Shown here: positions 38,567-64,000 of the stretch, piece by piece
Position numbering within the stretch: the first letter of the stretch is position 1
How the letters are laid out: every line of letters starts with the position of its first letter
Source: Thiotrichales bacterium
Lineage (GTDB): Bacteria; Pseudomonadota; Gammaproteobacteria; HK1
Direction: 5' to 3'
NCBI GenBank assembly: GCA_026709935.1
Contig: JAPOSC010000044.1
Span: 1,911 to 65,910 of the forward strand
DNA: 64,000 nucleotides
Notes under the pieces: model-generated
The model's input: the letters and a program-made list of their open reading frames with translations, nothing else
Told to the model about the DNA's origin: nothing
Database searches by the model: none
Position numbers and translations under genes: made by a program

Positions 38567-40594
38567 GTGACGGGAGGCATATATCCGGGCGCCGTGATTC
38601 GGGGTGGCCGGCGGCGCTGGCACGGCACGCGCCGCGGACAGTGCGGTGCCGTCCTGCTGGCCACGCTGGCGCTGATGATCCTCGCTGGCGCCGGGGTCCT
38701 GCTCGTGCGCTTCGACGGTACGGCGACGGTGCGGGCGCGAGAGGCCGCCGCGACCGCTCGCGCGCTCGCGGATGCGCGGCGGGCCCTCATCGGTTGGTCC
38801 GTCGGGGCCGGTCTGGCCGGGAGCGCAGAGGCGCATGCGCCGGGGCTGTTGCCCTTCCCGGATCGCAACACGGACCCCTACGGTTACGACGGCGAGGCCG
38901 ACTGCGTGACCGGCGGACTGTCCGATCGCCATCTCATCGGCCGGCTGGCGTGGGCCGGAGAGACGTCCCCGTGCCCGGATCGGGCCCTGGGGGTCGAGCT
39001 TCGCGACGGGTCGGGAGAGCCGCTGTGGTACGCGGTGTCGCGCAATCTCGTCAACCACCGGGGCGGCGGTGCGTCCGACCCGCCGATCAACCCCGGTCTC
39101 CTCGATCGCCCGCCTGCCTATCCGTGGCTGCGGCTGGTCGATGCCAATGGCCGCGTGGTGACCGCGAGCGACGGGGAACCGCTCGAGATCGCCGCGGTGG
39201 TCATTGCCCCGGGGCCGCCGCTGCCGGGTCAGAACCGGACAGGATTCGCGCCCGGCCCCGCCCAGTATCTGGATTCGGTCACCGTGAACGGAGTGACCTA
39301 CGACAACGCCGATGCCGACGGTTGCCATGATGCGGTCACCGGCGCGGGGGCGCACCCGAACTGTCCCGGTCGGGCCGGCGAGGAGTTCATTCTCTATCCG
39401 GACTCCCGCGACACCGCGACCGAGATGGATGCGTTCAACGACCGCGTCGCCTGGATCACGGCGGAGGAGCTGCTGCGGACGGCGGAGGCGCGCGCCCTCG
39501 GTGAGATGGCGGTGATCCTGGAGCGCTACCGGTCGCGCCACGGTGCATACCCGTGGCTGGCGCCGTACGCTGGCGATCCCGCGGCGGATCCGACGGGCAC
39601 GGTGCTCTACCACGGAGCCGCGGACGGAGCGGGTGGTACGCGCCACGGGATGCTCCCGGTGCACGCGATGCCCGGTCAGCTCTACGACACCGGGTATGTC
39701 CTGCGGTGGACGATCGATGCGGGGGCGGTGGTCGTCACCTCCGATCCGTCGTCCATCGGCTCGACGCCGCCGCCGACCGATGCCGAGCTGTACGCGCTCC
39801 TCTCCGCGGAGCCTCAGACCGTGAGCGGACCCGTCGTCTGCGCCTGGAACGGCGACGACGGCGTCCACTGTGCCGGAGAGCCGTACCGCTACGCTCCCGG
39901 CGTCGCCTTCATCCCGAGCGGATCGTTGGTGCGCGAGCGCGAGGTCCGAGTCGAGCACGACGAGGCAGCCTGGATCTTCTCCGGTGGCACCGTCGCGCCC
40001 GGTGCGGATCCGTCCGCGGCGGCGCCCCGCACCCGCACCGTGGCCGTCACCACGACCCTGCCGCCGTCCTTCATCGCGTCGGTCCGGGCGCGCAACCGAG
40101 AGATCCGGTGCGCCGATCCCGCCTGCTCCGCCACCATCACCACCGGGATGTCCGTCGAGCGCACCCTCACCGTTGACACCGGCACCCTCGCGACGCTCAC
40201 CTTCGCCGGTCTGGAGCACGACCTCAGCGTCGCCCGGGACGGCGTGCCGCGATGGTTCGTCGACAACGGTTGGTATCGGTACATCCGCGCGGCGGTGTCC
40301 GGCGAGGAGACGGGCGCGGGCGACCCATCGCCCGGACGCTGCATCGGTTCGGGGTCGGGATGTCTGATCCTGAGCGCGTCGGGGTTGGTGCGCGCGGACG
40401 TGCCCGCGTTCCTCGTCGGCTCGGGCCCGGCGCTCCCGCACCAGGCGCGTGACGGGTGCGGTGGCGCTTGCGCCGGGGCGTACTTCGAGCCCCCGCATGA
40501 TGCGGCCGGTGGCGATACGGCAACCCGCGCCGCGCTTGCAGCAGACTTCAACGATCAGGTCCGGGTGGCGGGTCCGCCGGGGACGAGCCCGTGA
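38567..40594 (+). CDS. Large minor pilin/pseudopilin-like protein (PilX/GspK-type leader)
   Basis: RRGQCG|AVLLATLALM class III-like signal; GLLPFPD, PLWYAVS and FNDRVAWI motifs; start uncertain (38567 or 38594). Confidence 0.65.
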   Translation: MTGGIYPGAVIRGGRRRWHGTRRGQCGAVLLATLALMILAGAGVLLVRFDGTATVRAREAAATARALADARRALIGWSVGAGLAGSAEAHAPGLLPFPDRNTDPYGYDGEADCVTGGLSDRHLIGRLAWAGETSPCPDRALGVELRDGSGEPLWYAVSRNLVNHRGGGASDPPINPGLLDRPPAYPWLRLVDANGRVVTASDGEPLEIAAVVIAPGPPLPGQNRTGFAPGPAQYLDSVTVNGVTYDNADADGCHDAVTGAGAHPNCPGRAGEEFILYPDSRDTATEMDAFNDRVAWITAEELLRTAEARALGEMAVILERYRSRHGAYPWLAPYAGDPAADPTGTVLYHGAADGAGGTRHGMLPVHAMPGQLYDTGYVLRWTIDAGAVVVTSDPSSIGSTPPPTDAELYALLSAEPQTVSGPVVCAWNGDDGVHCAGEPYRYAPGVAFIPSGSLVREREVRVEHDEAAWIFSGGTVAPGADPSAAAPRTRTVAVTTTLPPSFIASVRARNREIRCADPACSATITTGMSVERTLTVDTGTLATLTFAGLEHDLSVARDGVPRWFVDNGWYRYIRAAVSGEETGAGDPSPGRCIGSGSGCLILSASGLVRADVPAFLVGSGPALPHQARDGCGGACAGAYFEPPHDAAGGDTATRAALAADFNDQVRVAGPPGTSP

Positions 40595-40884
40595 AGACCG
40601 GTTTCGGTTCGAGGATGACCGGAGCAAGGACGCCGTCGCCTCGACCGACCCCCGGTCGCGGTCCTCGAACCGGTGATGCGGAGAGCTCAGGCCGTCCGGT
40701 CTCCGGCGCTCGGGTGACGACGGTCCGAGCCGCCACCCACCCGGGAGGCGCGGAGAGTGCCGGCTGCCCGGTTTCCGACTCCTTTCCGAGCTCGTCGCAC
40801 ATCCCTCCGACCGAGCACCCGGGCCGCGTCCGATGCGCCCGGACGCACCGCCCCCGTGTCTTTGCTCCCCGGAGATTCGGCGAC

Positions 40885-41718
40885 ATGCGCGTGCCGGACG
40901 ATCGACGCCGGCCCCGGCCCCGGCCCCGGCCCCGGCGTCAGGCGGGGTTCACCCTCGTCGAGCTTGCCGTGGTCATCGCGATCCTGGGTCTGGTGCTCGG
41001 CACGATGCTCGCTCCGTTGCGAGCCCAGATCGACGCGACGCGGATTCGGGCCGCGGAGCGGATGCTCGGCGAGATTCGCGAGGCGCTGATCGGGCACGTG
41101 ATTACCCGCGGGGCGCTGCCGTGCCCCGACGTCATCTCCGATGGCATCGACGGGGTGGCGCCCGCCGCCTGCGCTGGGGCGGCGCTGGCCGGGGTGCTGC
41201 CGTATCAGACCCTTGGGGTCGGGCGAGCGGACCCCTGGGGCCGACATTTCGGATACCGCGTCGCACAGGAGTTCTCGATCCGGGCCCTGACCGGTCAGCC
41301 ACCCGCCGCCGGCCGGCTCGATCTCACCGACACCGGCGATATCACGGTACTGGCCCGAGGCGACGATCCGGGCACCGCGGGCACCATCGAACTCAAGCAC
41401 CAGAGCGTCGCCACCGCGCTCACCCGCGCGGCCCCGGCGCTGGTGCTCTCGTTCGGGCCCGGCGGGCTCGGCGGCATCGACGCTGCGACCGGCCGCGCCC
41501 TCGCGTCGCCGTCCGGTGGCGCCATCGACGAAATCGAGAACGCCGATGCCGACGCGACGTTCGTCAGCCGCGTCCACTCGCCGGGTACCGACGGCTGCGA
41601 CGACGCCGACGAGTCGGCCGCACCACCGCCGCCATCGTGCGGGTTCGACGACATCGTGACGTGGATCTCCACCCCGGTGCTGATGGCGCGACTGGTCGAG
41701 GCTCGGGTTCTGCCGTGA
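40885..41718 (+). CDS. Prepilin-type minor pilin
   Basis: RRQAG|FTLVELAVVIAILG; DPWGRHFGY and FDDIVTW motifs. Confidence 0.88.
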   Translation: MRVPDDRRRPRPRPRPRRQAGFTLVELAVVIAILGLVLGTMLAPLRAQIDATRIRAAERMLGEIREALIGHVITRGALPCPDVISDGIDGVAPAACAGAALAGVLPYQTLGVGRADPWGRHFGYRVAQEFSIRALTGQPPAAGRLDLTDTGDITVLARGDDPGTAGTIELKHQSVATALTRAAPALVLSFGPGGLGGIDAATGRALASPSGGAIDEIENADADATFVSRVHSPGTDGCDDADESAAPPPPSCGFDDIVTWISTPVLMARLVEARVLP

Positions 41719-41876
41719 GCGCGTTCTGCCGTGAGCGTGTCCCCACCACCGTCGGGCAGGACCGGGCGCATCGTGACGTGGATTTCCACCCCGGTGCTGA
41801 TGGCGCGACTGGTCGAGGCGCGGGTTCTGCCGTGAGCGTGTTTCCGCCACCGTCGGGCAGGATCGGGCGCATCGTG
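41652..41876 (+). repeat. Tandem duplication of the prepilin gene 3' end
   Basis: Copies start at 41652 and 41769 (117-bp offset); a third begins at 41870. Confidence 0.9.
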
Positions 41877-42013
41877 CCGCGGGTCTTTGCTCCGCCACCG
41901 GGCGCGCCGGTCGCCCGACGCGCGCATGCGGCGATGGATGCATCCACGCGCTGCGGCCCGGGCCCCGGGAGCGCCCGCCCGGCGAGATCGGCGAGATCGG
42001 TGGGATGGGCGAG

Positions 42014-42781
42014 ATGAGCGCTGTGCTCGCGATCGCCCGTGTCACCGCTCTCGAAGCGGTGCGGGGCCGGTTCGCGTGGCTCGTGGTGGGATTCGCGGTG
42101 GCGGGGTGCGGGCTCGCGATGTTCGCCGGCGAGATCGCGATCACCGGGACGGAGGGCTATCGCAGTGGACTGCTCGGGGCCTGGCTGCGGTGGTGGGCGG
42201 TGTTCGCGGCCAGCGCGTTCGCGGTTTCGAGCGTGGTCGGGGACGCCCACGACAAGGGGCTGGATCTGATGCTGGCGACATCCATGCCCCGCGGTGCGTA
42301 CTGCGCCGGCAAGCTCGCCGGATTCGGCGCCGTCGCGCTGCTCCCGGCCGCGGCCGGTGCGCTGGCGCTGGCGTGGTTTGCGCCGTTGCCGCAGGTCGCG
42401 CTGTGGGGGGTCTCCCTCGCTCTGGAACTCTGCATCGTCGCGGCCGCGAGTCTGCTGTGCGCGTTCACCTTCGCCCACCTCGCATGGGCGATGAGCATGG
42501 TGCTCGGGTTCTACGTGCTCTCGCGGTCGATGACGGCGCTGCAACTCATCGCCCACGCCCCCGGGACTGATTCCGGATCGGCGGCCTGGCCGTTCATCCG
42601 GGGGTTCATCGATGCCCTCGCATATCTGTTGCCCGATCTCGACCGGTTCACCCAGTCGCAGTGGCTGATCCACGGCACCGGCACCCTGGCCGAGCTCGGC
42701 TTCGCAGCGGCGCAGACCGCAGTGTATCTAGCCCTGCTCGGCGCCGCGGCGGCGTTCGATCTCCACCGGAAGGTCCTTTGA
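42014..42781 (+). CDS. ABC-2 type exporter permease (PilI/XapC-like)
   Basis: About 6 TM helices; LATSMPRGAYCAGKL, LPDLDRF and FDLHRK motifs. Confidence 0.75.
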   Translation: MSAVLAIARVTALEAVRGRFAWLVVGFAVAGCGLAMFAGEIAITGTEGYRSGLLGAWLRWWAVFAASAFAVSSVVGDAHDKGLDLMLATSMPRGAYCAGKLAGFGAVALLPAAAGALALAWFAPLPQVALWGVSLALELCIVAAASLLCAFTFAHLAWAMSMVLGFYVLSRSMTALQLIAHAPGTDSGSAAWPFIRGFIDALAYLLPDLDRFTQSQWLIHGTGTLAELGFAAAQTAVYLALLGAAAAFDLHRKVL

Positions 42782-42926
42782 GCCCCGCCGCCTCCCCTGG
42801 AAAATCCGGGGTGGCCCGAGGCGGCGTTCGACCTCCACCGGAAGGCCCTTTGAGTCTCGCCGCCTCCCCTGGAAAGTCCGGGACGGTCCGCAGCGGCGTT
42901 CGATCTCCATCGGAAAGCCCTTTGAA
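42749..42926 (+). repeat. 2.5 x 72-bp tandem repeat of the permease 3' end
   Basis: Copies at 42749, 42821 and 42893; TGA retained at 42779, 42851 and 42923. Confidence 0.92.
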
Positions 42927-42954
42927 CCTGCCGTGCCGGCGCGGGGGCGGTCGC

Positions 42955-43656
42955 GTGTTCCGCTCCCGGGAACGGCCCGTCGCCGCGGTGCCGCAGGCGG
43001 TGCGGTGGATGCTGGCGGCGGCGCTCGCGCTCCAGATCGGCTGGCACGCCTGGCGGCCGGACCCACGGGCCGAAGCGTCGCCCCTCGGGCCGGTCCCCAC
43101 CGCCCCGGCGTTGCAGGTCGCGGCGCTGGGCGACCGGGCGGCCTTCGCCCGGCTGCTCATGCTCCGGCTGCTGATCCACGACCGCCAGCCGGGGGCGAGC
43201 ATCCCGTTCATGCGCCTCGACTACGCACGAGTCGCGGGATGGCTCGATGCGATCATCGATTTCGACCCCCGGCACGACGCGCCCCTGCTCGCGGCGGCGA
43301 GACTGTACGGGTCGGTGTCCGATCCGGTCCGGCAACGCACGATGTTCGCGCTCGTCCACCGGCGGTTCCTGGAAGACCCGGCCCGACGCTGGCCGTGGCT
43401 CGCGCATGCAGCGGTGATGGCGAAACACCGGCTCGGAGACCCGCGCCTCGCCCTGCGCTATGCCCGGGCGGTGACCGAACACGCGATCGGTCCGAACGTA
43501 CCGGCCTGGGTCCGGGACATGAGCGTGCTGATCGCGGCGGACCTCGGCGAGCTGGAGACCGCCCGGATCATCATCGGCGGCCTGCTCCACAGCGGAAGGG
43601 TCCGGGACCCGCACGAGATCCGGTTCCTCGGCGCGCGGCTCGCGGAGATCGAATGA
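42955..43656 (+). CDS. Pilus-associated hypothetical protein (PilG/XapA-like)
   Basis: N-terminal TM, then DYARVAGWLDAIIDFDPR helical region; follows the ABC-2 permease. Confidence 0.65.
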   Translation: MFRSRERPVAAVPQAVRWMLAAALALQIGWHAWRPDPRAEASPLGPVPTAPALQVAALGDRAAFARLLMLRLLIHDRQPGASIPFMRLDYARVAGWLDAIIDFDPRHDAPLLAAARLYGSVSDPVRQRTMFALVHRRFLEDPARRWPWLAHAAVMAKHRLGDPRLALRYARAVTEHAIGPNVPAWVRDMSVLIAADLGELETARIIIGGLLHSGRVRDPHEIRFLGARLAEIE

Positions 43657-43680: not shown

Positions 43681-43855
43681 AGCCTGCATTTCTTGCCGAG
43701 TTGCGAGTGAAGGCGTGGAGATGACCGCTTAGGCAAGGCGAACGCGAAACAACCCACTCAGGCATACCCGTAGGTACGGAGCGAGCTTGCGAAGCAGGCG
43801 GCATGCCTGAGTCAGATCCGCGTCCGCAGCCGTGAACTGGTTGGAAATGCAGGCT
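43681..43855. mobile_element. MITE-like element
   Basis: 12-bp terminal IR agcctgcatttc/gaaatgcaggct; internal IR actcaggcat (43756)/atgcctgagt (43803); no ORF. Confidence 0.5.
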
Positions 43856-44446
43856 TGGGCCGGTGCAGTAAATGGGCCGGTTTGAGGGAACACCGACCGC
43901 CGCGAGGAGCTGCCTCGTGTCCCCGCTCATGTCGTCGGGAGTGGATGCACTTCCGGCGGCATGGCACGCAAGTGCCTGTAGATGCTCGAAAAAGAGCAAT
44001 TCGGGGAGCAGCGAAGAACGGCGCGGGAGTCAGGTACAGTGGGTGTGACTGCATGTAACCCGACGCGCGGTCAGGAAAAACCCACACACGAGCGGGAGGA
44101 AGGATACTGCTTCGGGTGTGTTGTCAAATATCCTTAAACGACATTGATATCTTGAAAGCGACATTCTTGCTGGCGGACTTTTCTGCCATTCGGCACGGGC
44201 ACTCGTTCGGGAATGTGCGATTTTTTTCCTTTATTTACAACTGCTTGGCTCAGCGTCCAGAAGGGCGCGGAGCACCTGCGAGGCTGTGATCGGCCGTCGC
44301 AGTGAAGCGTCCGGCCGAGATTCGCCCATCGTCCCTTTCACCCTCTGAATTCGCCCCCTGCCGGCACATCGATGGTGACCGGCTCGGGACGCATTTCCCC
44401 CTCTGGGTAACACCTGGGGACACGCGGGTAACAAACGCGGCGGCTT

Positions 44447-44497
44447 GATTAGAGTCGGATGCGAAGCATTCGCATCTGCGTTGGTTGGGCTCTAATC
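44447..44497. repeat. Small nested inverted repeat
   Basis: gattagagtc...atgcgaa gca ttcgcat...ggctctaatc. Confidence 0.55.
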
Positions 44498-44865
44498 CTC
44501 TGTTTTATCTCGTTATTCGTCTCCGGCCCCTGGCCCTGAACGGGTATCTCCATGGCCTCGGGGACACGCCACCCCCCAATCACACCCACAGTACCTGACC
44601 GATCCGGCGGGGTCGGTCATCAAAACGCCGGGTGGATTCGCACTCCACGGCCAGCGACACACACACGCGCAGGGGGTCTGTACAGCCCTACTGCTTCAAC
44701 GCTTGGGAAACAGGCAGAGGCCGAGATGCGGGGCCGACGCCGATGCGTAGCGGGGGGGCCATGGCGGAGTCACGGGGCGGCGGGGTGCGCCGGCCCGTCA
44801 CATGTCCCTCCGAGATGGTCGCCGCCGACCGGGCGGTGAATCTTCAATGCACAACGGAGCGCAAC

Positions 44866-47403
44866 ATGATGAAAGCACGAACGAGCCTATGGGCGAGCCT
44901 GGCCATCGTGGCCAGCCTCGGCCTCGCCGGATGCGGCGGGTCGAGCGATAACGATGATCCGGCACCAACGCCGCCTAAAGTCACTACCCTGCCAGCCGAT
45001 CACGGCCTTATCGATGGGCGGGATACTACGATCGAGGCTGGTGGAACCCTGAAGACGTCTACTGGGACGCTGGCATGCCCTGAAGACGGCATGGATTGCA
45101 TGATCAAGGTCGTCGCGGAACTCGATGGTAGCTTTACGGCTACCTCGACGGGTGGTGAAGCCACGTTTACGGCGGATGAGCCCCCGACGCCTCCCAAGAC
45201 TGTCGCCGAGATGCAGATGGAGACCTTCGACAATGCGAAGGCTGCCATCGAAGCGGCGGCGACTGAGGCTGCGGCCCAAGCAGCCTATGACACGGTTGAC
45301 AAGGACGACATCACCGCCAAGCAGGCTGATGATTTGCAGACTGCGCTCAGCACGCGGATCGGTGAGATTCAAGCAGCGGCGCTGAAGCCTTTTAATGACG
45401 CGAAGGCCGCCATTGAAGGGGCTGCTACCGAGGATGCAGCGCAGGCGGCTTATGACGCCGTTGATCAGGATGCCATCACCGGGAAGCAGGCTGCTGATTT
45501 GGCTGCCGCACTCAGTATGAAGATCAGTATGCTTCAGAAGGACGGGCGGATTGTCACTCAGAAAGCAGAACTAGCGCGTCTCTCTGGCTTGATCGACACG
45601 TCCGACCTGTCGGATCAGGATAAGGTAGATGCCGCCAGACTAGCAATCACCGCTCTTCAGACTGCGCTGGATTCCGGCTCGCCTGATCTGACCGAGGAAG
45701 ATAAGGCTCAGTACGTAACTCAGTTGGGCAACGCCAATACAGCCGTCACGGCAGCGCAGGGTGGGATTGACCGGGATACTCGTCGGACGACTCAGATGGC
45801 GGATCTCGGGACTGCCGGTACCAATCTCCAAGCTGCGCTCGATGCGTTTGCCGGGAAGACGGCTACGAAGGATCAGCTTGATGATGCGAAGGCGGCTCGT
45901 ACCGCTCTGAAAGCTAAACTCGACGACGCCAAGGATCTGAGCGACGCCGAGAAGGCTCAGTACCAGTCTGCGTATAACAGTGCAGCGGGTACGATTGCCT
46001 CTGCGGAAACGGCCTTTAATACGGCTGAGACCAAGAGGATAACTGAGGAGACGGAAGCGACGGAAGAAATGGCCGAGGCCCTATACAGTGCAATCAAACC
46101 ACGCGGTGGCGCTACGTCCTTCAATTTCGGGACAACAGAAATAACTGCCTCAACGGATGTTAGCGAAGCCCAGAGCCTCGATGCTGGATACGGTGACGGC
46201 ACCACAGATGATGCGGCGGAGAACCAAACCAAGATCCTTATTGCTATCGATACCGATGACACTCCATCCGCCACTAACCCAGAAGTCTTCACGCTTTCAG
46301 AAGATAAGAAGACGACGGTCGCTTCCATCGGGGATTGGACGGGTAAGAGGTTCTATGCCCAAGAAGAGAGCGGGGATAAGCGCCTCCATGAGGCATTCGT
46401 CTACTCCTATGTCGGAGCACCTACGCCAGGCGATAAGTTCAGTACCGTCTATGGACTAGGAAGTGAAGAGGACAATTACGAGTTGGAGGCTGCGGAAGCG
46501 GACGGCGATAGCGATGGCGGTAGTGATGCATTTATCCCAGAGAGAGTGACGATTCCGAGCGTTACGCGGACGGCTGGTGATTATACGTTCGAAAAAGCGA
46601 GGGATCGTGATAGTGACATTGAAGTGCCGGGTAGTTATCACGGCGTAGCTGGCGTCTATGTTTGTTTGCCAACCAATGATGCCGGTACCTGTTCAGCCTC
46701 GGTCACGGGAGCTGGACTCGTGCTTGGTACGACTGATCAAACATGGACATTCGAAGTTAGCAACCGGGACGCAAAGGTTTCAGATAAATCCGATACTTCC
46801 TACGCCTCATTTGGTTGGTGGATAGAGAAAGACTCGGATGGCGACCCTAGCACTGTAAGCGTATTCGAGGATTTCAGAGGAACTGTCGGAACTGGCCTCA
46901 CTTCAACCGTCTTCAATGGCTTAGGGGGTACGGCAACCTACAATGGAGGCGCTGTTGGCAAGTACGCACTCAGGAGTTCTACGGGTGGCAAGAACGAATC
47001 TGGTCACTTCGTGGCAACCGCAATACTTGAGGCGGATTTTGGTACTGCTGGCGCTAGTGGTACCGCAGGCGATATTTCAGGCACCATCGACAATTTCAAG
47101 ATCGGTGACGCTGGAGAGGATCGAGACTGGTCTATCGCTCTTAAAGAATCTGACTTTGACTCCTCTACAGCAAATGTTGTTACTGCGGGCGAGTCTGATG
47201 ATGGAACGATTTGGACTATGGGCAGTGGAGACGACGTAAACGCAGCCAATGCGTCAGGTGGGTGGCAGATGAATCTCCGCAACAATACTAATAACGGCGA
47301 CGGTAACGTTCCCGAAGTCGCAACCGGAACGTTCTCCTCTGAGTTCGGTTCAGAGGGCAGTATGGTCGGTGCCTTCGGTGCGAGCTTAGAGAAGGCTCAG
47401 TAA
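44866..47403 (+). CDS. Large surface lipoprotein with TbpB-like C-terminal beta-barrel
   Basis: Lipobox LAG|C; two 55-aa helical repeats; C-terminal GTATYNGGAVG...ISGTIDNF...ATGTFSSEF...MVGAFGA; lower GC than flanks. Confidence 0.75.
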   Translation: MMKARTSLWASLAIVASLGLAGCGGSSDNDDPAPTPPKVTTLPADHGLIDGRDTTIEAGGTLKTSTGTLACPEDGMDCMIKVVAELDGSFTATSTGGEATFTADEPPTPPKTVAEMQMETFDNAKAAIEAAATEAAAQAAYDTVDKDDITAKQADDLQTALSTRIGEIQAAALKPFNDAKAAIEGAATEDAAQAAYDAVDQDAITGKQAADLAAALSMKISMLQKDGRIVTQKAELARLSGLIDTSDLSDQDKVDAARLAITALQTALDSGSPDLTEEDKAQYVTQLGNANTAVTAAQGGIDRDTRRTTQMADLGTAGTNLQAALDAFAGKTATKDQLDDAKAARTALKAKLDDAKDLSDAEKAQYQSAYNSAAGTIASAETAFNTAETKRITEETEATEEMAEALYSAIKPRGGATSFNFGTTEITASTDVSEAQSLDAGYGDGTTDDAAENQTKILIAIDTDDTPSATNPEVFTLSEDKKTTVASIGDWTGKRFYAQEESGDKRLHEAFVYSYVGAPTPGDKFSTVYGLGSEEDNYELEAAEADGDSDGGSDAFIPERVTIPSVTRTAGDYTFEKARDRDSDIEVPGSYHGVAGVYVCLPTNDAGTCSASVTGAGLVLGTTDQTWTFEVSNRDAKVSDKSDTSYASFGWWIEKDSDGDPSTVSVFEDFRGTVGTGLTSTVFNGLGGTATYNGGAVGKYALRSSTGGKNESGHFVATAILEADFGTAGASGTAGDISGTIDNFKIGDAGEDRDWSIALKESDFDSSTANVVTAGESDDGTIWTMGSGDDVNAANASGGWQMNLRNNTNNGDGNVPEVATGTFSSEFGSEGSMVGAFGASLEKAQ

Positions 47404-47418
47404 GCATCACTAGCACAA

Positions 47419-47449: not shown

Positions 47450-47481
47450 CCCTCTAGGAATCGTTCAGGAGCAAATGACCA

Positions 47482-56719: not shown

Positions 56720-58367
56720 CGGCGCGCAGGGTCACTCGCATCTCGAACGTCGCATCCTCGCCGGTGGTGCCGGCGGCTCCGGTCAGGGCGTGTTCCGATC
56801 CGAGTTCCAGCGGCAGACTCAGGATCCGCACGTGCTCGACCCCGGAGGGTGCGGCGAGCGCATCCGCGAGCCGACGGACGGTGTCGATGGCTGCACGATA
56901 GTCGCCGTCGAACGGTTCGATCCGTGCGCTGAAGCGCGCAGCCTGGAACTGCCGCCGCGAATCGTGCGGCGGCCGGTGGCCGGAGGGTCGCGTTTCGGTC
57001 CGGTCGTCACCCGGCGCGCTGACGGGCGCTTCCGGATCGTCGCTCGTGCGCCACGAGAGCGCCTCGATATGCACCCGCGGAAAGTCTGCGAGGGCCTGGC
57101 TCAGGTGCGCGAGAACATCCACCGGATCCGCCTGCCGGCGTTGCCGCGCGTTCACGGCCGAGACCACCCGTTCCAGCTCGACCGGCTCGGCCGGGGTGGA
57201 CGGCAGCGCCGCCTGCGCGGCCCGATACCGGCGCTCGTAGAGCGTGGCGTGTACGGCGAGTGTATCGGCGTGCCCGCGCGCGGCGACTCCTTCGAGAGCG
57301 ACGACTCCCCCGAACAGACCGGCCCCGACCGCGATGACCGCACTCCCGGCTTTCAGGGCGAGACCGATCCGCCCTGCCGAATGCCGGCGGATCTGATCGG
57401 GCGTCGCGTAGTGGTTGCGTGGCGGGTGGCCTGCGACCAGAAGGTGGACGAACAGCCGATCGGCGCTCGCTTCGCCGTCCCATCGGCGCAATCCGAGCCG
57501 ACGGGCGACCGTGGCGAGATCCACCACGCGGCACCGCGCCGGGGTGTCCTCGTCGTCGTTACCGCCCGCGCTGCCCGTGCCATCTTTTGCGTTCACGTCG
57601 GCGTCATGCGCCGCAAGCGCTCGCCGCAACCCTTCGAGCGGCGCGCCATGGCTCAGCACGTGAACGTCGAGGCGATCGCCGGATGCTCCGGAGCCCCGGC
57701 TCGCCAGATTCGCCAGGTTCCCCGGATTGCGCAGGTAGCGGCGAGTCCGTTCGATCTCGGCCAGGATGTGGGACTCGTGCCCGCCGGCGGCGGGATGGGG
57801 GAGGGCGGCGAGCCGCGAGAATCGCAGTTTCCCGCCCCGGAAGCAGGTCTGCCGGAGTCCGCCGCCGGACTGTCGCGAGACCACCAACACATGCTCGCCC
57901 ACCGCCCCGACCGCTTTCAGCATCGGTGCGGTGAGCATGGCGGGGGAATGAATGCCGGCGAGCGGGACGCCGCGCTCCTCCATCGCGGCGAGCCAGCCGG
58001 CGAGCGTCTCGGGCCGGGTAATCGCGCTCAGGCGCACGCGGTCGTCGCGCCGGCCGTCCGGCTCCCGCCCGAGCCGCGCCGCGTGCAGGTAGCGTGCGCC
58101 GGGGAAGGCCCGGGCCGCCCGCGCGCGCATCAGCGCCCCGCGTTCCCAGGCGAGCACGTGCGGAACCGTCTCCTCGCGGAACTCCTCCTCCACCACGTCG
58201 GCCACGACGTGGGTGATCTCGTCCGGGAACCGATCGAGGTAGCGCGCGAATTCGGCGCGTCCGTCTTCGTCCGCCCCGAACGGGAACGGGCCGAGCAGTT
58301 TCGAGCCGTGCCGGTGGTACGCAACCAGCCCCGCGCCCGAAATCACGAAGACCCGTCGCGCCGCCAT
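56694..58367 (-). CDS. PilM/PilN (GspL-like) fused alignment protein
   Basis: Cytoplasmic N-terminal domain (VVADVVEEEFREETVP), central TM, periplasmic C-terminal domain; ATG overlaps the platform gene stop. Confidence 0.6.
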   Translation of the reverse strand: MAARRVFVISGAGLVAYHRHGSKLLGPFPFGADEDGRAEFARYLDRFPDEITHVVADVVEEEFREETVPHVLAWERGALMRARAARAFPGARYLHAARLGREPDGRRDDRVRLSAITRPETLAGWLAAMEERGVPLAGIHSPAMLTAPMLKAVGAVGEHVLVVSRQSGGGLRQTCFRGGKLRFSRLAALPHPAAGGHESHILAEIERTRRYLRNPGNLANLASRGSGASGDRLDVHVLSHGAPLEGLRRALAAHDADVNAKDGTGSAGGNDDEDTPARCRVVDLATVARRLGLRRWDGEASADRLFVHLLVAGHPPRNHYATPDQIRRHSAGRIGLALKAGSAVIAVGAGLFGGVVALEGVAARGHADTLAVHATLYERRYRAAQAALPSTPAEPVELERVVSAVNARQRRQADPVDVLAHLSQALADFPRVHIEALSWRTSDDPEAPVSAPGDDRTETRPSGHRPPHDSRRQFQAARFSARIEPFDGDYRAAIDTVRRLADALAAPSGVEHVRILSLPLELGSEHALTGAAGTTGEDATFEMRVTLRADVPDGTET

Positions 58368-59569
58368 CAGATGCCGATGGTGGCGATCAGGTCGTAGATC
58401 GGCCCGAGCACGGAGAAGATCACCCAGAACAGGATCGCGCCGAGTACGACGGTGATAGTCGGGCCGATCATCGCCTGGAGCTGTTCCATCGACTCCGATA
58501 CGCCGCGGTTGTAGTAGCGGCTCACGTTGAGCAGCGCGGCGTCCAGAGCGCCGGTGCTCTCGCCGAGGCGCAGCATCCGCAGTACCAGGGGCGAGAACAG
58601 CCCCGTCGCCTCGAACCCCGCACTGATGCCGGCGCCCTCCGCGATCTTCGCCCCCGCCCGACGGGTGGCGTCCTCCACCGCCCGGTTTCCGGCGATGCCC
58701 TCGCAGATGCGGATGCACTCCAGCACTGTGATCCCGGATGCGTAGAGCAGCGCGAAGCTGCCCGCGAACCGGGCGAGGAGGATCCGCTGCATGATCGGAC
58801 CCACCAGCCAGGTCCGGAGCTTGAACGCATCCACCGCATGCGCCACCGCGGGACTCGCCCGGCCGAGCGCGCGCAGGAGAAGGAAGGCGGCGACGGGCGC
58901 CGTGAGAGCGAGATACCAATACGCCACGAACAGATCCGAGACGAGGATGAGCGCCCGCGTGTGGGCCGGAAGCGCTTGCCCCATCCCCTCGATGAAGGAG
59001 ACGAGCTGCGGCACGAGATGGGTCATCAGGAAGAACACCACGAGCATGACCACGGCGCCCGCGATGGCCGGATAGGTGAGCAGCCGGCGCATCAGCGCGA
59101 TCTGTTCGTTCTGCCACTTCAGGTGCTCGTTGAGGTGGCCGAGGATCTCTCCCACCCGACCCGACAGCTCGCCGGCGTGGACGAGGTTGACGAAGACCGC
59201 CTCGAATACCCGCGGGTGCTCGCGCATCGCGCCGGACAGCGTCGCGCCACCCTCGATCGACACCACCATGTCCGCCAGCACCTCGCGCAGGCGCGGGTTG
59301 CCGGCGGAGTCGCGCAGCGTGGCGAGTCCCTCCAGCACCGGCACCCCGGCGGTCAGGAGCTGCTCCATGTGGAAGCAGAACCCGACGAGATCGCCGCGGC
59401 GCACCCGGGCGCGCCGGAGCGCGCGTCGGACTCTCGCCTCGCGGAAGGTAACGAGGTCGAGTCCGAGCCGCGCGAGCCGGGCCTCCAGGTCGGCCGGGTT
59501 GGCGGCCTCTATCTCGCCGGTGCGCTTGCGGCCGCGCTCGTCGACCGCCTTGTATCGCATCAGCGGCAT
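58367..59569 (-). CDS. GspF/PilC/MshG-family platform protein
   Basis: LLTAGVPVLEGL, AGELSG and LGESTGALD motifs. Confidence 0.92.
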   Translation of the reverse strand: MPLMRYKAVDERGRKRTGEIEAANPADLEARLARLGLDLVTFREARVRRALRRARVRRGDLVGFCFHMEQLLTAGVPVLEGLATLRDSAGNPRLREVLADMVVSIEGGATLSGAMREHPRVFEAVFVNLVHAGELSGRVGEILGHLNEHLKWQNEQIALMRRLLTYPAIAGAVVMLVVFFLMTHLVPQLVSFIEGMGQALPAHTRALILVSDLFVAYWYLALTAPVAAFLLLRALGRASPAVAHAVDAFKLRTWLVGPIMQRILLARFAGSFALLYASGITVLECIRICEGIAGNRAVEDATRRAGAKIAEGAGISAGFEATGLFSPLVLRMLRLGESTGALDAALLNVSRYYNRGVSESMEQLQAMIGPTITVVLGAILFWVIFSVLGPIYDLIATIGI

Positions 59570-61311
59570 CAGCCGCCGACCCGATCGGTCAGCCGGCTGG
59601 TCAGATCGACCACGCGCGAGACTTCATCGAGACTCGTCACGCCTTCCCGCACCCGGCGGATACCGTCGTCGGCGAGGGGGCGGAAGCCCCTGCCGTCGGC
59701 TGCCTTCGAGATGTCGAGGGTCGACGCCCCATGGGCGACGAGCTCGTCGAGCTCCGCGTCGAACCGCAGCAGCTCCAGCAATGCGAGTCGACCGCGATAG
59801 CCTTGGTGCTCGCAGCGGTCGCATCCCCGCGGCCGGTACACCGGCGGGGAGTCCGAATGCGGGCCGAGACCGAGGATCCGGCGCTCCAGCCGCGCGGGCT
59901 CGTACGCCTCGCGGCACTGCGAACAGAGTCTGCGCACGAGCCGCTGGCCCACGATGCCGATGATATTGCCGGCCATGACCCCGGGGGAGACCCCGGTCTC
60001 GACGAGGCGCGCGACCGCGCCGGCGGCGGAGTTGGAGTGCAGCGTGGAGTAGACCTGGTGACCGGTCATGGCGGCCCGGAACGCCATCTCCGCCGTCTCC
60101 GCGTCGCGGATCTCGCCGATCAGAATGATGTCCGGGTCCTGTCGCAGCAGGCTCCGCACCCCGCTCGCGAAGGTGAGTCGGGTGGCCTCGTTCGCCGCCG
60201 TCTGGCGGACTCTGCCCATCGGATACTCGACCGGATCCTCCAGGGTCATGATGTTGACCGACTCGGTGTCGAGATGGCTCAACATGGAGTAGAGCGTGGT
60301 GGACTTGCCGCTTCCGGTCGGCCCGGTCACCAGGATGATCCCCTCGGGACGGGCCATCATCAGGCGCAGTTCGGCCAGTGCATCGTCGGCGAGTCCGAGC
60401 CGGTCGAGGGCCACGATGCCCTGGTGCCGGTCGAGCACCCGCAGCACGATGTTCTCGCCGTGGATGGTGGGCAGCGACGAGACCCGGAAGTCGATGTCCC
60501 TCCCCGAGACCGACAGCGAAATCCGCCCGTCCTGCGGTACGCGCCGCTCCGCGATGTTCATCGATGCCATCACCTTGAGCCGCACCGCGATCGCGGCCCA
60601 GTGGTCTCGGTGCAGGCTGCGGATCTGGCGCAACACGCCGTCGATGCGATACCGGATGCGCAGGAACTCGTGCGCGGGCTCGAAGTGGATGTCCGATGCG
60701 CCCCGCCTCACCGCATCCGAGAGGAGCGCATTGACGAGCCGTACCACCGGCTGCCCGTACTCCTCGTTCCCCGTCTCCAGGAGCCGCGCGTCGATTTCGC
60801 CGGTCTCGATTTCCACCAGGATGCCGTCGAGCGACAGCTCGTGCCCGTAGAACTGCTCGATGGCCTTGTCGATCTCCACCTCGCCTGCGAGCACCGCCCG
60901 GATCTCCACCCCCGGGTCGAACAGCGCCCGCACCTGATCCATGGCGACGATGTTGAACGGATCGGTGGTTGCCACCGCGAGCTGTCGTGCCGCCGGGTCC
61001 CAGGTGAGCGCGAGCACCCGGTAACGCCGTGCAGTCTCGCGCGGTACGCGCTTCACGACGTCGCTGTCGATCAGCACCTTCGACAGGTCGACGCTGTCGT
61101 ATCCGAGCACCCCCGCGAGCATGTCGCGGATGACGCCTTCGGTGGCGAACCCGAGACGCACGAGGATGCGGCCGAGCGGCTCGTCCCGGTGCCTTTGCTC
61201 GGTGCGCGCGATCCGCATCTGGTCCTCGCTGACCACCCCCTTCGCGACCAGGACCTGGCCGATGTTCTCGGTGCGTGGGCTGTCGGTGGGGAAGGACACG
61301 TCAGTCCGCAT
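59569..61311 (-). CDS. GspE/PilB/MshE-family assembly ATPase
   Basis: MshEN-like N-terminus; GPTGSGKST, LEDPVEY, LRQDPDIILIGEIRD and CxxC pairs. Confidence 0.93.
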   Translation of the reverse strand: MRTDVSFPTDSPRTENIGQVLVAKGVVSEDQMRIARTEQRHRDEPLGRILVRLGFATEGVIRDMLAGVLGYDSVDLSKVLIDSDVVKRVPRETARRYRVLALTWDPAARQLAVATTDPFNIVAMDQVRALFDPGVEIRAVLAGEVEIDKAIEQFYGHELSLDGILVEIETGEIDARLLETGNEEYGQPVVRLVNALLSDAVRRGASDIHFEPAHEFLRIRYRIDGVLRQIRSLHRDHWAAIAVRLKVMASMNIAERRVPQDGRISLSVSGRDIDFRVSSLPTIHGENIVLRVLDRHQGIVALDRLGLADDALAELRLMMARPEGIILVTGPTGSGKSTTLYSMLSHLDTESVNIMTLEDPVEYPMGRVRQTAANEATRLTFASGVRSLLRQDPDIILIGEIRDAETAEMAFRAAMTGHQVYSTLHSNSAAGAVARLVETGVSPGVMAGNIIGIVGQRLVRRLCSQCREAYEPARLERRILGLGPHSDSPPVYRPRGCDRCEHQGYRGRLALLELLRFDAELDELVAHGASTLDISKAADGRGFRPLADDGIRRVREGVTSLDEVSRVVDLTSRLTDRVGG

Positions 61312-62710
61312 CCGTTCGTGATTCGAGGATGCGGATGCGCTCGCGGACCGCTTCCGTCTCGAAGCCGGTGCGAGTGCCTTGCGCCAGCACGAGCGCCTCC
61401 CGGTACAGCGCGAGCGCGTTCCGGGGCTGCGACAGATGGTCAAGGCCGACTGCGAGGTTGTAGGCGTGGTCCGCGTTGCCGCGCTCGAGGCGATAAGCGC
61501 GGAACCAGGCCCGCTGCGCCTCGGGCCATCGCGACTCGGCGGCGTAGAGGTTGCCCAGGCTGAAGTGCAGGTGTGCGGCCTCCGGCTCGATCCGCAGCAG
61601 TGCCTTCAGACCACTCTCCACGCGCGTCGGATCCCCCTCTGCGATGGCGATGAGGGCGGCGCGGGCGGTGGTGTCGGCGGGGTGGGAGGCGAGGAGGGTC
61701 GTGTAGTGTTCCGCCGCCTCGTCCTGTCGGCCGGCCTGGGCCGCGACTGCCGCGAGCCCCAGCCGGGCGTCGCGGTTGCGAGGCTCGTGTCGGAGCACGG
61801 ACCGATATGCCTGTCCGGCCGCTTCGCCGTCCCCGGCGAGGTACGCCCGGTAGGCGCGTTCGAGCGACTGCGCGACATGATCGGCGTGCGTGCGCTTCGT
61901 GATGACGATGTGGCGGCCGGAGCCGGACGCCATCGCAACCGTCTCGTCCGGCTCTCCCTCCGGCGCGTTGTTCCCGGCGGGCAGTGCTACCGCCTCCGCG
62001 GTTGTCTGCGGGGTCGGGTGTCCTTCACCGCGCGGTGTCGTGGCGAGCATCGGGATGCCTTCGCCGTTCTCCGCCGTCGCGGAGCGGCCGGGAGGATTCC
62101 CGCTTTCGGTTGCTTCTGCCGGCCGGTCCGGGCGGATGCCATCGTCCGGCCCCGCCGCGAAGACGGCGGCGGGATCGTGCGGTGCTGACGCCACGGCCCC
62201 GGTTGGCTCGCGGGCATCTGCCGCGACACTCCCTGCATGCGTCCGAGCCGGCTCCACTGCCGCCTCTTGCCGCGGCGGCAGCCCCCTGACCAGCGCGGGT
62301 CGCGTCAGCTCCGTCTTCCACAGGAAGGCGCCGCCGCCGGCCGCCGCGCCCGCGGCGACGAGCATCGACACCGCGATCCCGATGCCGCGCCCGATGCCGC
62401 GGCTCCCGGGCAGGGACCGGAATCCATCGCGTTCGACCGCACGGGTCCCATCCGCATCGCTTGCGGCGGTGCCGGCGGAATCGGAAGGCATACCTCCGCA
62501 GGCGGCGGGGATGGGGCCCGGAGGCTCCGGTGCGGCGAATTCGGCGCCATGAATGGCCGCATCCACGGCCGCACCGTCCCTCGTTGCCCGCAAAGGGCCG
62601 AATTCTCCCAGCTCATCGGCGGTGCGATCGGTCGATTGATCAGCCGTTCGGGCATCGGCCTCCGGTGGCGGGTTTTCGGCGAGCTTCAGTGCGTGTGTCA
62701 GCGGGTTCAT
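61301..62710 (-). CDS. TPR protein (MshN-like)
   Basis: MNPLTHALKLAE N-terminus, TM, low-complexity linker, C-terminal TPRs (AHLHFSLGNLY, YNLAVGLDHL). Confidence 0.8.
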   Translation of the reverse strand: MNPLTHALKLAENPPPEADARTADQSTDRTADELGEFGPLRATRDGAAVDAAIHGAEFAAPEPPGPIPAACGGMPSDSAGTAASDADGTRAVERDGFRSLPGSRGIGRGIGIAVSMLVAAGAAAGGGAFLWKTELTRPALVRGLPPRQEAAVEPARTHAGSVAADAREPTGAVASAPHDPAAVFAAGPDDGIRPDRPAEATESGNPPGRSATAENGEGIPMLATTPRGEGHPTPQTTAEAVALPAGNNAPEGEPDETVAMASGSGRHIVITKRTHADHVAQSLERAYRAYLAGDGEAAGQAYRSVLRHEPRNRDARLGLAAVAAQAGRQDEAAEHYTTLLASHPADTTARAALIAIAEGDPTRVESGLKALLRIEPEAAHLHFSLGNLYAAESRWPEAQRAWFRAYRLERGNADHAYNLAVGLDHLSQPRNALALYREALVLAQGTRTGFETEAVRERIRILESRTDAD

Positions 62711-64000
62711 GGTTGCTCTCCGACGAGCGGCCGCGGGCCGGCCGATGGATGCGTGGTTCCAGCGGCTCCGGTGGCGTCAGGGAGCCAGGATCGGAAGTCC
62801 CGCAGGTCCGCTTCGACGCTCGGGGTCCGGATGACCCTCGGACGAATGAAGATCACCAGCTCGGTCTTGACGGACTCGCTCTTGCGAAACCGGAACGCGG
62901 CGCCGAATCGGCCCGTGTCCGACAGGCCTGGTATCCGGTCGTTGTCGCCTCGATGGCTGTCCTGCATGAGCCCGCCGAGAATCGCGGTCTGGCCGGAGTT
63001 GAGTCGGAGCACCGACTCCATCTCGCGCACCAGCAGCTCGGGCACCGGGTTGGTGACGCCCGCGGCCGCCAGTTCCGGCTGCGGATCGTTGACGAAGCGG
63101 TTGACGCGCGTGATGGTCGGCCGCACGTTCAGGATGATCTCGTCGGCGTGGCTCACGTGTGGGGTCACTGCGAGCATGATGCCTTCGGGTGCCGTCCGCG
63201 CGTCGGTGTCGATCCTGGCCGTCCCGGGCGTGGTGTCCGTCCCGCTCGCAGTCTCCACGTTCACCTCGAAGTAGACGATGTTGCGCATCGCCTTCAGCAC
63301 CGCGGTCTGGTTGTTCAGCACCACGAGCTTCGGGCTGGAGAGCACCTGCACCCTGCCGAACTCCTCCAGCAGTCGCACCGTCAGCCCCAGCGACCCGCCC
63401 CGGTAGCTCAGCGCGAAGAATGGCGGGGTCTCCAGGTTCCCGGCGAGCAGGCGCTGGCTCGCCCCGATGCCGTCGTTGCGCGCAAGCCGTTCCCAGTCGA
63501 CGCCGGCCTGGAAACGCTCGCTCAGCTCGACCTCGACGATCGTCGTCTCGACGAGCACCTGACGGCGGGCGCTCGCGAGCACGTCGTCGAGATAGGCCTC
63601 GACCTCGCGGTGCCGGCGGGCGGTGGTGCGCACGAGGAGGATCCCCGCCTCCGGGTTCGGGATCACCGCGGCCCCGGCGCCCGGCTCCAGCGCCGCGCCC
63701 GGTCCGGCCGGCGGTGCGCCTTCGGCCTCCGGCGCCGCCGCGCCGCCGGGGTCGGGGTCGTTGCCTTCGAGCACGATCGCGCGCACCGCGGTGGCGATCG
63801 TCTCCCAGAAGCGGTGGCTCGAGAGGCTGTCGATATCGGTGGAGGAGTTGTTGCCGAGGCTCGCCTCTCCCTCGCCTCCGGCCGACACCTGGGTCGCGGT
63901 GGAGCTGCGCGAGCGAACGTCGCGGGCCACGTTGACGTAGTCGATCCGGTAGCTGCGCAGCACCGGAGTGTCGGGCTCGATCACGAGTACGCCGTTGCGG
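62707..64000 (-). CDS. Secretin (MshL/GspD/PilQ family), 5'-truncated by the window edge
   Basis: QVLVETTIVEVELS, LSSPKLVVLNNQ, GQTAILGGL, PGLS and TELVIFIRP motifs. Confidence 0.92.
   Translation of the reverse strand, partial: RNGVLVIEPDTPVLRSYRIDYVNVARDVRSRSSTATQVSAGGEGEASLGNNSSTDIDSLSSHRFWETIATAVRAIVLEGNDPDPGGAAAPEAEGAPPAGPGAALEPGAGAAVIPNPEAGILLVRTTARRHREVEAYLDDVLASARRQVLVETTIVEVELSERFQAGVDWERLARNDGIGASQRLLAGNLETPPFFALSYRGGSLGLTVRLLEEFGRVQVLSSPKLVVLNNQTAVLKAMRNIVYFEVNVETASGTDTTPGTARIDTDARTAPEGIMLAVTPHVSHADEIILNVRPTITRVNRFVNDPQPELAAAGVTNPVPELLVREMESVLRLNSGQTAILGGLMQDSHRGDNDRIPGLSDTGRFGAAFRFRKSESVKTELVIFIRPRVIRTPSVEADLRDFRSWLPDATGAAGTTHPSAGPRPLVGEQP

Follow-up and report, generated by a model that had tools for sequence, protein, structure and literature searches.

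Few bacterial nanomachines have been studied as thoroughly as type IV filaments. Here we describe a locus that encodes one such system together with components of an ATP-binding cassette (ABC) transporter, in a 64,000-nucleotide stretch of DNA from a Thiotrichales bacterium (assembly GCA_026709935.1, contig JAPOSC010000044.1, positions 1,911 to 65,910); "the window" refers to this whole stretch. The genes lie in two arms – machinery on the minus strand, pilin-type subunits and the ABC module on the plus strand – and are given below with the basis of each assignment (aa, amino acids; AF2, AlphaFold2; TM, transmembrane; TPR, tetratricopeptide repeat).

62707 to beyond 64000, minus strand: outer-membrane secretin, 3' part (PF00263, E=3.8e-34; weak Secretin_N_2)
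61301-62710, minus strand: bitopic TPR protein in an MshN/TadD-like position (TPR_19, TPR_16 and related families at residues 276-443)
59569-61311, minus strand: extension ATPase, GspE/PilB family, MshEN domain at the N-terminus (T2SSE PF00437, E=6e-128; MshEN PF05157, E=2.6e-16)
58367-59569, minus strand: inner-membrane platform of the GspF/PilC/MshG family (T2SSF PF00482, two repeats, E=8.6e-43)
56694-58367, minus strand: 557-aa bitopic PilM/PilN-type (GspL/MshI-like) fusion (fold match)
56084-56719 (start possibly 56668), minus strand: 211-aa bitopic protein in the PilO/GspM/MshJ position (position and topology)
55227-56003, minus strand: exported 258-aa protein in the PilP/MshK position (signal peptide; family alignment A6)
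38558-40594 (start 38462, 38558 or 38567), plus strand: large pilin-derived protein without Glu5, ~678 aa (paralogue of pilin X)
40885-41718, plus strand: prepilin X, 277 aa (N_methyl, E=2.4e-8; class III signal peptide RRQAG↓FTLVE)
42014-42781 (start possibly 42005), plus strand: ABC-2-type permease, 255 aa (homologues with ABC-2 Pfam families)
42955-43656, plus strand: TM-TPR protein ("HEL"), 233 aa, membrane-anchored and periplasmic (AF2 fold)
48498-49214, plus strand: prepilin Y, 238 aa (N_methyl, E=9.8e-8)
50087 (alternatively 49976)-50785, plus strand: ABC ATPase of the DrrA/NodI/GldA/PmtA class, 232 aa (ABC_tran, E=4.5e-23; HYSKGM signature)

Because the GC content of the window is ~68-72%, genes were called by third-position GC, and the calls were checked against Pfam and NCBIfam. 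An earlier reading of this DNA (the original prediction) had listed the genes of both arms, and every one is present at about the place it gave. Its ABC-2 permease and its ABC ATPase with a YSKGM sequence are likewise borne out, the first through the Pfam families of homologues and the second directly, as is its remark that neither PilT nor a prepilin peptidase is in view: neither these nor an MshM/GspA-type ATPase was found among the window open reading frames (ORFs) scanned. The secretin runs past the end of the window; on an identical metagenome contig (L001) it is full length at 556 aa and is the first gene of the arm, after tyrS. All core genes being full length, the system looks intact. 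The GspF gene is identical on sponge-metagenome contigs and in a Thiotrichales metagenome-assembled genome (MAG).

Evidence that these genes constitute a unit comes from their arrangement in other genomes. A survey with an alignment of 10 permease sequences, taking one genome per species, gave 80 loci, which were then screened by tblastn with all window proteins plus the proteins of the Pseudoduganella operon as queries. The loci come from many gammaproteobacterial MAGs, from Ectothiorhodospiraceae, Methylococcaceae, Oxalobacteraceae (Janthinobacterium, Undibacterium, Massilia, Duganella, Pseudoduganella and Herminiimonas), Sulfuricella, Rhodoferax, Rhodocyclaceae and Magnetococcales, and from one "Deltaproteobacteria" MAG. 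In almost every locus with enough flank there is one co-directional operon, in the order secretin, TPR protein, ATPase, platform, PilM/N fusion, PilO-position protein, PilP-position protein, Glu5-less paralogue, pilin X, permease, TM-TPR protein, pilin Y. Measured relative to the permease, and counting loci with enough flank, the TM-TPR gene lies directly downstream in 70 of 72, pilin X no more than 5 kb upstream in 61 of 68, pilin Y no more than 4.5 kb downstream in 53 of 59, and the machinery (platform, PilM/N fusion and PilO-position protein) no more than 10 kb upstream in 44 of 55. Chance falls far short of explaining this linkage: a collinear operon recurs in dozens of genomes belonging to different orders. 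No homologue of the PilM/N fusion was found in the plasmid collection, and the system is not plasmid-borne there.

The original prediction had made the co-occurrence of the ABC genes with these pilins its own test, and permease and TM-TPR protein accompany pilins and machinery in 80 other loci, usually in one operon. Of the ABC "trio" that it envisaged, the pairing of permease with TM-TPR protein stands, but the cognate ATPase (42-84% identical) is adjacent in only 20 of 55 loci, directly following pilin Y or – in L018 and L042 – directly preceding the permease. Since the ATPase is so often not adjacent, the constant unit is the permease plus the TM-TPR protein, not the trio. Distal ATPase matches at 31-34% identity, present in six loci, were left out of these counts; they are LptB, encoded beside KdsD, KdsC and LptC.

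Taken by itself, the window might be read as an accident of gene order, in which a machinery arm, stray pilins and two ABC systems, unrelated to one another, lie side by side without forming a functional unit. The arms are convergent, with 11.6 kb of other genes between them, the permease and the ATPase are separated by a 7-kb gap, and several of the genes in the window (those for an 884-aa ABC protein, a cyclic-nucleotide-binding (cNMP-binding) protein, a 216-aa protein, a CCDC90-like protein and a lipoprotein) occur in close relatives only. The relatives, however, carry the core genes contiguously on one strand: five loci (L011-L013, L015 and L037), whose permeases are 59-66% identical to that of the window, keep the single operon, as do distant Betaproteobacteria, and most of the five continue past the ATPase into the genes for the 884-aa, cNMP-binding and 216-aa proteins. 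In the window an inversion has carried the machinery arm beyond these three genes, and a 4.38-kb insert (43812-48229, GC 55-60%), with a 40-nt direct repeat at its ends (43812-43851 and 48190-48229, 83% identical), splits the TM-TPR gene from pilin Y. One inversion and one insertion explain the layout, including the 7-kb gap; it is secondary and genome-specific. We regard chance juxtaposition as highly improbable. It is rejected for the core genes by the collinear operons and the linkage counts, and it holds for the lineage-specific neighbours only: the genes for the 884-aa, cNMP-binding and 216-aa proteins, the CCDC90-like gene (which in the window lies between pilin Y and the ABC ATPase) and the lipoprotein gene are outside the conserved system. 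The two-arm layout is thus present in the window but is a rearrangement of what in relatives is one operon, and the span 38567-64000, once taken as one system, contains the core genes but also genes foreign to it.

The nature of the filament is a second issue. A GspE/PilB-family ATPase, a GspF/PilC-family platform and subunits with class III signal peptides place the locus in the type IV filament superfamily (TFF). Within that superfamily the secretin is best matched by the NCBIfam model for MshL (TIGR02519), the secretin of pili of the mannose-sensitive haemagglutinin (MSHA, or MSH) type, at 222-223 bits against a cutoff of 250.2; the Janthinobacterium copies reach 249.5-249.9 bits, at the nearest a mere 0.3 bit short. 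By comparison, the window secretin scores 136 bits with the GspD model of type II secretion systems (T2SS) and 92-105 with the PilQ model of type IVa pili (T4aP); across the window and its relatives GspD scores span 136-152 and PilQ scores 91-105, the cutoffs being 351 for GspD and 284 for PilQ. It is 26% identical to an annotated Legionella MshL over 505 aa, and aligns with E. coli GspD over 285 aa. Adjoining the secretin, in an arrangement conserved in the loci, is the machinery-arm TPR protein, with a TM segment at about residues 106-124 (by hydropathy), a Pro/Ala-rich linker and C-terminal TPR repeats.

The motor is similarly placed. The extension ATPase is 38% identical to Legionella MshE over 565 aa and 45% identical to E. 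coli GspE over a 390-aa core; with NCBIfam it scores about equally as GspE (535.7, cutoff 630) and PilB (528.5, cutoff 676), below both cutoffs. Its MshEN domain is a predicted receptor for cyclic di-GMP (c-di-GMP), and NF053729, the model for the MshE-type c-di-GMP motif, scores 45.5 against a cutoff of 38 (64.4 in the Pseudoduganella orthologue). The platform scores 277 bits with GspF (cutoff 424). The T2SS equivalog models (GspD, GspE and GspF) and the T4aP models (PilQ and PilB) are therefore all below cutoff.

These observations bring to the fore the possibility that the locus is a divergent but canonical MSHA pilus, whose ABC genes are mere passengers that do something else, such as peptide immunity, Na+ efflux or Nos-like export. 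MshL is indeed the best secretin model, and the Janthinobacterium copies miss its cutoff narrowly; the locus further shares with MSH an MshEN ATPase, a TPR protein beside the secretin, the lack of a peptidase and a single-locus organisation. MSH systems are encoded at a single locus without a prepilin peptidase (PMC6668835), and here tblastn with E. coli GspO detected none, whether in the window or across 82 loci. Moreover, homologues of the permease are annotated as Cu-processing or Na+ efflux permeases, and most loci have no adjacent ATPase. Yet MshM, which is mandatory in the TFFscan model of MSH (Denise et al. 2019, PMC6668835), is absent: tblastn with Legionella MshM and E. coli GspA gave no MshM/GspA-type ATPase in the window or the 82 loci, and the arm contains no AAA_22-type gene. 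The order of genes also differs, being L-N-E-G-I-J-K-pilins here and I-J-K-L-M-N-E-G in the MSHA-type locus of Legionella. Profiles of the accessory families, compared with the proteins in the MshI/PilN/J/K positions of Legionella, gave hhalign probabilities of 0.4-15% and so no significant match, although with one annotated reference locus the comparison has low power. Finally, the interleaving of permease, TM-TPR protein and pilins (70/72, 61/68 and 53/59) is too constant across orders for passengers, and the family of the TM-TPR partner is small and specific. We consider a canonical MSHA pilus with passenger genes improbable.

The Legionella locus deserves a remark of its own. It lies at 257543-268967 of NZ_LR134433.1 (Legionella adelaidensis; L090), is of the MSHA type in canonical order (pilins, MshI/PilN, J, K, MshL, an AAA ATPase, an MshN-position protein and MshE), and adjoins uvrB, cytochrome oxidase and ubi genes; the record is listed as a 365-kb "plasmid" but looks chromosomal.

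Since the secretin is MshL-like but just under the cutoff, MshM is lacking, the gene order is different and the accessory proteins go unmatched, the system is distinct from canonical MSH. By the tests run it is an MSHA-related but distinct lineage, outside canonical MSH, T2SS and T4aP as far as sequence comparison goes. The original prediction had called it a hybrid fitting neither T4aP, T2SS nor MSHA: its components do not all fall inside the canonical classes, but what emerges is a coherent, vertically conserved lineage and not a patchwork.

The 557-aa fusion has no sequence match in Pfam, NCBIfam or the PDB. An AF2 model built from a 34-sequence alignment (pLDDT 74.8) has an N-terminal actin-like domain for which Foldseek returns PilM (5eox, 2ych and 5eou; E from 5e-9 to 4e-8), as well as the cytoplasmic domain of GspL/EpsL (4pht, 1yf5 and 1w97) and FtsA. 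The domain is cytoplasmic and is followed by a TM segment at about residues 340-358, a periplasmic coiled coil and a C-terminal alpha/beta domain. The PilM/GspL fold, the TM helix and the C-terminal alpha/beta domain together identify the protein as a PilM/N-type fusion, in agreement with the original prediction. The 211-aa protein, encoded directly after the fusion in 54 loci, has a single N-terminal TM segment, an invariant Cys pair and an LLHEGDL motif; it had been called PilO-like, a label that position and topology uphold and sequence does not. The exported 258-aa protein is marked by the conserved motif GRLFxTPxERAxLD, ends in a small beta domain, and is grouped by alignment A6 with a 154-aa protein of the Pseudoduganella type; its similarity to the MshK-position protein of Legionella is faint and local (hhalign E=0.0017, probability 15%). 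In public gene calls the frame of this protein is disputed (227 aa versus 286 aa; an alternative lies at 55276-55959, minus strand), and homology to at least 28 loci favours 55227-56003. A 67-aa ORF with a single TM segment (54965-55168, minus strand) comes after the arm.

On the plus strand, the three prepilin-type proteins of the original prediction proved to be two with N_methyl matches and one derived from a pilin. TIGR02532 matches both the 277-aa and the 238-aa prepilin, and the G↓FTLxE motif is conserved in relatives. Prepilin X has the conserved motifs LPCPD and LPW/YxxLG...DxWG and, in its N-terminal half, a weak match to GspG (29 bits); the profile of its family matches solved pilins at their N-termini only. 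The large protein is a paralogue of pilin X: its N-terminal ~310 aa are homologous to the whole of pilin X (hhalign 99.8%, E=1e-27) and are followed by an extension of ~360 aa. Its leader is RRGQCG↓AVLL, with RRGQCG preceding a hydrophobic N-terminus that has neither Phe1 nor Glu5, and the sequence RRGQCG↓AVLLATLALMILAG fits the consensus of relatives, [KR]xQRG↓AALL. Relatives range in size from 246 to 996 aa, and searches of Pfam and the PDB with this protein were empty. We regard it as a "tip"-type subunit, like GspK solely in the missing Glu5. Pilin Y has an almost invariant N-terminus (GFTLVEIAIVLVxxGLLLGGxLKGQ, alignment A8), further motifs DRYRxxPGD, GGNGNG and ELDxKxDDG, a C-terminal Cys pair and a mature length of ~180-230 aa. 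It is probably the major subunit, being the best candidate because its N-terminus is the most conserved of the pilins and because in some genomes it has regulators of its own.

Those regulators are two-component genes that in 13 loci stand in the operon just before pilin Y and encode a 205-aa REC+HTH_8 regulator and a histidine kinase of ~360 aa; the loci given for their position between the TM-TPR gene and pilin Y are L022, L024, L026-L030, L035, L036, L043, L044 and L049. In L031 the interval from pilin X to the permease holds, in the opposite orientation, the gene for a 562-aa multi-TM histidine kinase (8188-9876). Such embedded genes suggest that the portion comprising permease, TM-TPR protein and pilin Y is separately regulated, which is common for major pilin genes. 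The gene after pilin Y in Janthinobacterium encodes a BOF (bacterial OB-fold) protein.

The pilins bear also upon the main rival explanation: that the locus is a T2SS-like secretion system, in which the ABC exporter would bring a cargo that bypasses Sec (a peptide, lipid or glycan) into the periplasm and a short, piston-like pseudopilus would expel it through the secretin. The weak GspG match of pilin X and the Glu5-less subunit, which recalls GspK, would fit such a machine, as would the 45% identity of the ATPase core to E. coli GspE, the slight advantage of the GspE model over PilB, and the fact that no locus has a retraction ATPase (there is a single T2SSE-family gene per locus). The nearest solved relative of the permease, PmtD, exports peptides. 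Set against this, the operon contains no conserved cargo or biosynthetic gene; tblastn with E. coli GspC, H, I, J, K, L and M gave no match; the secretin sides with MshL (222-250 bits) over GspD (136-152); the permease family is not of the Wzm type that serves glycans; and pilin Y is large, with a putative disulfide as in true pilins. On balance we think a secretion piston unlikely, if less so than an MSHA pilus with passengers.

This returns us to the ABC module itself. The window permease has no direct Pfam match; its 116 homologues (36-70% identity) include many that match PF12698, PF12679 or PF12730, and its profile (A1) finds PmtD, permease of the exporter of phenol-soluble modulins (PSM), as nearest solved relative, weakly (E=8e-4). 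Its N-terminal helix bears the motif IARxTxLExxR, in which E14 and R17 are invariant, also at loci without an adjacent ATPase. The TM-TPR protein, which belongs to no Pfam family, is modelled by AF2 (pLDDT 84) as a TM helix (residues 14-32) followed by a TPR-like helical solenoid; Foldseek returned generic TPR matches alone (E>=0.014), YfgM and PilF among them (E>=0.08), and no specific functional lead. Of 1.84 billion representatives clustered at 50% identity, its family accounts for 665, all of ~230-260 aa. The ABC ATPase scores 145 bits with the NCBIfam drrA model.

Weighing these lines together, we give somewhat better than even credence to the view that the locus represents a distinct, conserved lineage of type IV filaments, closest to MSHA-type pili, in which the pilins are handled by an ABC module. 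In such a system, binding of c-di-GMP to the MshEN domain would license the extension ATPase, and the platform, driven by the ATPase, would polymerise pilin Y beneath a tip formed of the Glu5-less protein and pilin X. The filament would exit via the secretin, its pilins having been processed by a prepilin peptidase encoded elsewhere. By analogy with PilGHI of Myxococcus, the ABC-2 permease and TM-TPR protein, with or without the ATPase, may act at the inner-membrane step, delivering, extracting or clearing membrane-embedded pilin. A role at the pilin step is favoured because the module is constantly interleaved between two pilin genes; because ATPase, permease and TPR protein stand together in that order in L018 and L042; because the N-terminal helix motif of the permease is invariant; and because PmtD, the nearest solved relative, is an ABC-2 permease that expels peptides. 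The peptides expelled by PmtD are amphipathic and helical.

A more specific proposal is that permease, TM-TPR protein and ATPase form an ATP-driven extractor or loader that moves the hydrophobic stem of the pilin into or out of the inner membrane. We hold this to be speculative and rather unlikely as it stands. If true, pilin supply, recycling or retraction-like functions would fall to the extractor, the machine having no PilT; it would constitute a mechanistically new module of type IV filaments and account for the unresolved requirement for PilGHI, the ABC proteins of Myxococcus pili.

Several points weigh against the reading of the locus as an MSHA-related filament with ABC-handled pilins. 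The principal one, and the main unexplained point, is the frequent lack of an adjacent ATPase: in 35 of 55 loci, all those of Janthinobacterium and Pseudoduganella included, the cognate ATPase is not within 10 kb, and so the module may not always be an ATP-driven transporter, or the ATPase may be encoded elsewhere. The role assigned to the module is deduced solely from gene order and the analogy with PilGHI. The leading Arg is missing from both c-di-GMP motifs of the MshEN domain (NIGQVLVAKG... and PLGRILVRLG..., ATPase residues ~17-66), and since the first motif residue is not Arg in either copy, binding of c-di-GMP by the window ATPase is unproven. The sequence support sought for a PilO/GspM identity of the 211-aa family was not found (in Pfam one of 24 members matched T2SSM, at E=0.017, and the PDB gave none), and the "PilP-like" label of the exported protein lacks significant sequence support, a PDB profile search being empty. 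The weak GspG match belongs to pilin X, which leaves pilin Y a presumed major subunit.

In a sponge metatranscriptome (X25), contigs of low depth (85-95% identical) cover the majority of the genes in the two arms, with none over 45.7-47.0 kb. They are compatible with transcription of related systems but too weak to use, because they are assembled contigs, DNA may have been carried over, and other strains contribute.

The neighbours of the system within the window can be dealt with briefly. The insert between the TM-TPR gene and pilin Y carries an ORF of 845 aa (44866-47403), lipoprotein-like, with an LGLAGCGG lipobox and Ala/Asp/Thr-rich repeats but without a match in Pfam or the PDB; a related ORF occurs in the same place in the closest relative (L009) only. 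The idea that this protein ends in a TbpB/Slam-substrate barrel was dropped, as Pfam and PDB searches gave it no support. With no tRNA at 30-64 kb the insert is not tRNA-associated. After the ATPase of the system comes a trio of genes (50859-54822), present in the window and the close relatives L008 and L010-L013 only: the 884-aa protein is an ABC exporter (TM domain plus nucleotide-binding domain with a large insertion), the cNMP-binding protein (162 aa) resembles TIGR03896, the "bacteriocin-type transport-associated" family, and the 216-aa protein has no family. A scan of 38-64 kb with Rfam gave no match. Further upstream, among housekeeping genes, selB and selA (selenocysteine incorporation) lie at 22416-26052 and are unrelated to the system.

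Small repeats are a further feature of the plus arm. Tandem duplications of gene ends occur at three junctions (41626-41882, 42744-42959 and 49884-50073): pilin X has a duplicated 3' end (100 nt, 86%), that of the permease is repeated threefold in 72-nt units, and a doubled 94-nt unit immediately precedes the ABC ATPase, giving rise to a spurious N-terminal extension (calls of 269 aa versus 232 aa). The 13-nt motif GGTGAGAAATGCR is present in 7 copies in the window, against 2.07 expected, a number reached in 0 of 100 shuffles. Five copies flank pilin Y (43685-43697, 43839-43851, 48217-48229, 49344-49356 and 49392-49404), two of them forming an inverted pair just downstream; GGTGAGAAATGCR could be an operator or a small repeat element.

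The locus matters for several reasons. Wu et al. reportedly described PilG/PilH/PilI of Myxococcus xanthus in 1998, and why some type IV filaments need an ABC transporter has been a standing question ever since. In the present lineage, with permease and TPR partner set between the pilins, the link between ABC transporter and pilus is obligatory at the level of gene order; and since its carriers include culturable bacteria of soil and water and the easily grown, genetically tractable genera Janthinobacterium, Duganella, Massilia and Undibacterium, the need of the pilus for the transporter is directly testable. At least six protein families here are unnamed in Pfam, NCBIfam and PGAP: the PilM/N fusion, the PilO- and PilP-position proteins, the TM-TPR partner and the globular domains of pilins X and Y. 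For the Pseudoduganella orthologues of the fusion, of the proteins in the PilO and PilP positions, of the pilin paralogue and of the TPR partner, PGAP gives "hypothetical protein". Systems of this kind would probably be called "generic" by TFF classifiers, or be mis-filed as MSH. In a survey of the superfamily, a guilt-by-association screen is reported to have yielded no further proteins with a systematic association (Denise et al. 2019, PMC6668835), and we found in the literature no published account of an ABC-coupled MSHA-like system or of a Janthinobacterium MSHA; the original prediction's view that the arrangement is probably uncharacterised thus agrees with what we found.

How, then, does the system compare with those already known? 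With the MSHA pilus of Vibrio it shares an MshL-type secretin (by best model), an MshEN extension ATPase, an MshN-like TPR protein beside the secretin, and proteins of PilM/N type and in the PilO and PilP positions; as in MSHA, neither a peptidase nor a retraction ATPase is encoded in the locus, which in most genomes is a single operon. Unlike MSHA it has no MshM, no recognisable MshF, MshO, MshP or MshQ, and only three pilin-type genes, among which are placed the ABC-2 permease, its TM-TPR partner and, in some loci, an ATPase; its accessory proteins, moreover, go unrecognised by Pfam, NCBIfam and PGAP. The T2SS (Gsp/Xcp) offers a motor and platform of the GspE/GspF families, a secretin, a GspL-like fold, a Glu5-less subunit (GspK) and a weak likeness to GspG in the N-terminal half of pilin X, but differs in that the present system possesses a TPR protein, an MshEN domain and an MshL-like secretin, and scores far below cutoff with the Gsp models.

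The ABC module has its own set of counterparts. PilG, PilH and PilI are encoded beside the major pilin gene of Myxococcus and are required for piliation and pilin export (PMC3724824, PMC6060248); they are the only characterised precedent, reported to be indispensable for moving pilin across the inner membrane (PMC3724824). The resemblance, which is one of architecture alone, lies in an ABC ATPase, a permease and a third protein beside pilin genes, and the order pilin X, permease, TM-TPR protein, pilin Y, ATPase is of this PilGHI type. The host machine in Myxococcus is, however, a canonical T4aP with PilT, in a deltaproteobacterium, with the order pilA-G-H-I, and the ATPase of the present system is often not adjacent. 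In Geobacter the Xap genes (xapD, GSU1501) encode an ABC transporter, described as an exporter of sugar or exopolysaccharide, beside type IV pilin genes (PMC5585712). Here again architecture alone was compared: the ABC genes likewise adjoin pilin genes, but the present system, unlike Xap, has no glycosyltransferase or polysaccharide genes. In its transporter components – a small ABC-2 permease with six TM segments, an ATPase of the DrrA/NodI/GldA/PmtA class and an accessory periplasmic partner, as NosD and GldG are – the module resembles the class of PmtABCD, LanFEG, NosFY and GldAFG; it departs from that class in having no cargo or immunity context, in its new, TM-anchored TPR partner, and in its place within a pilus operon.

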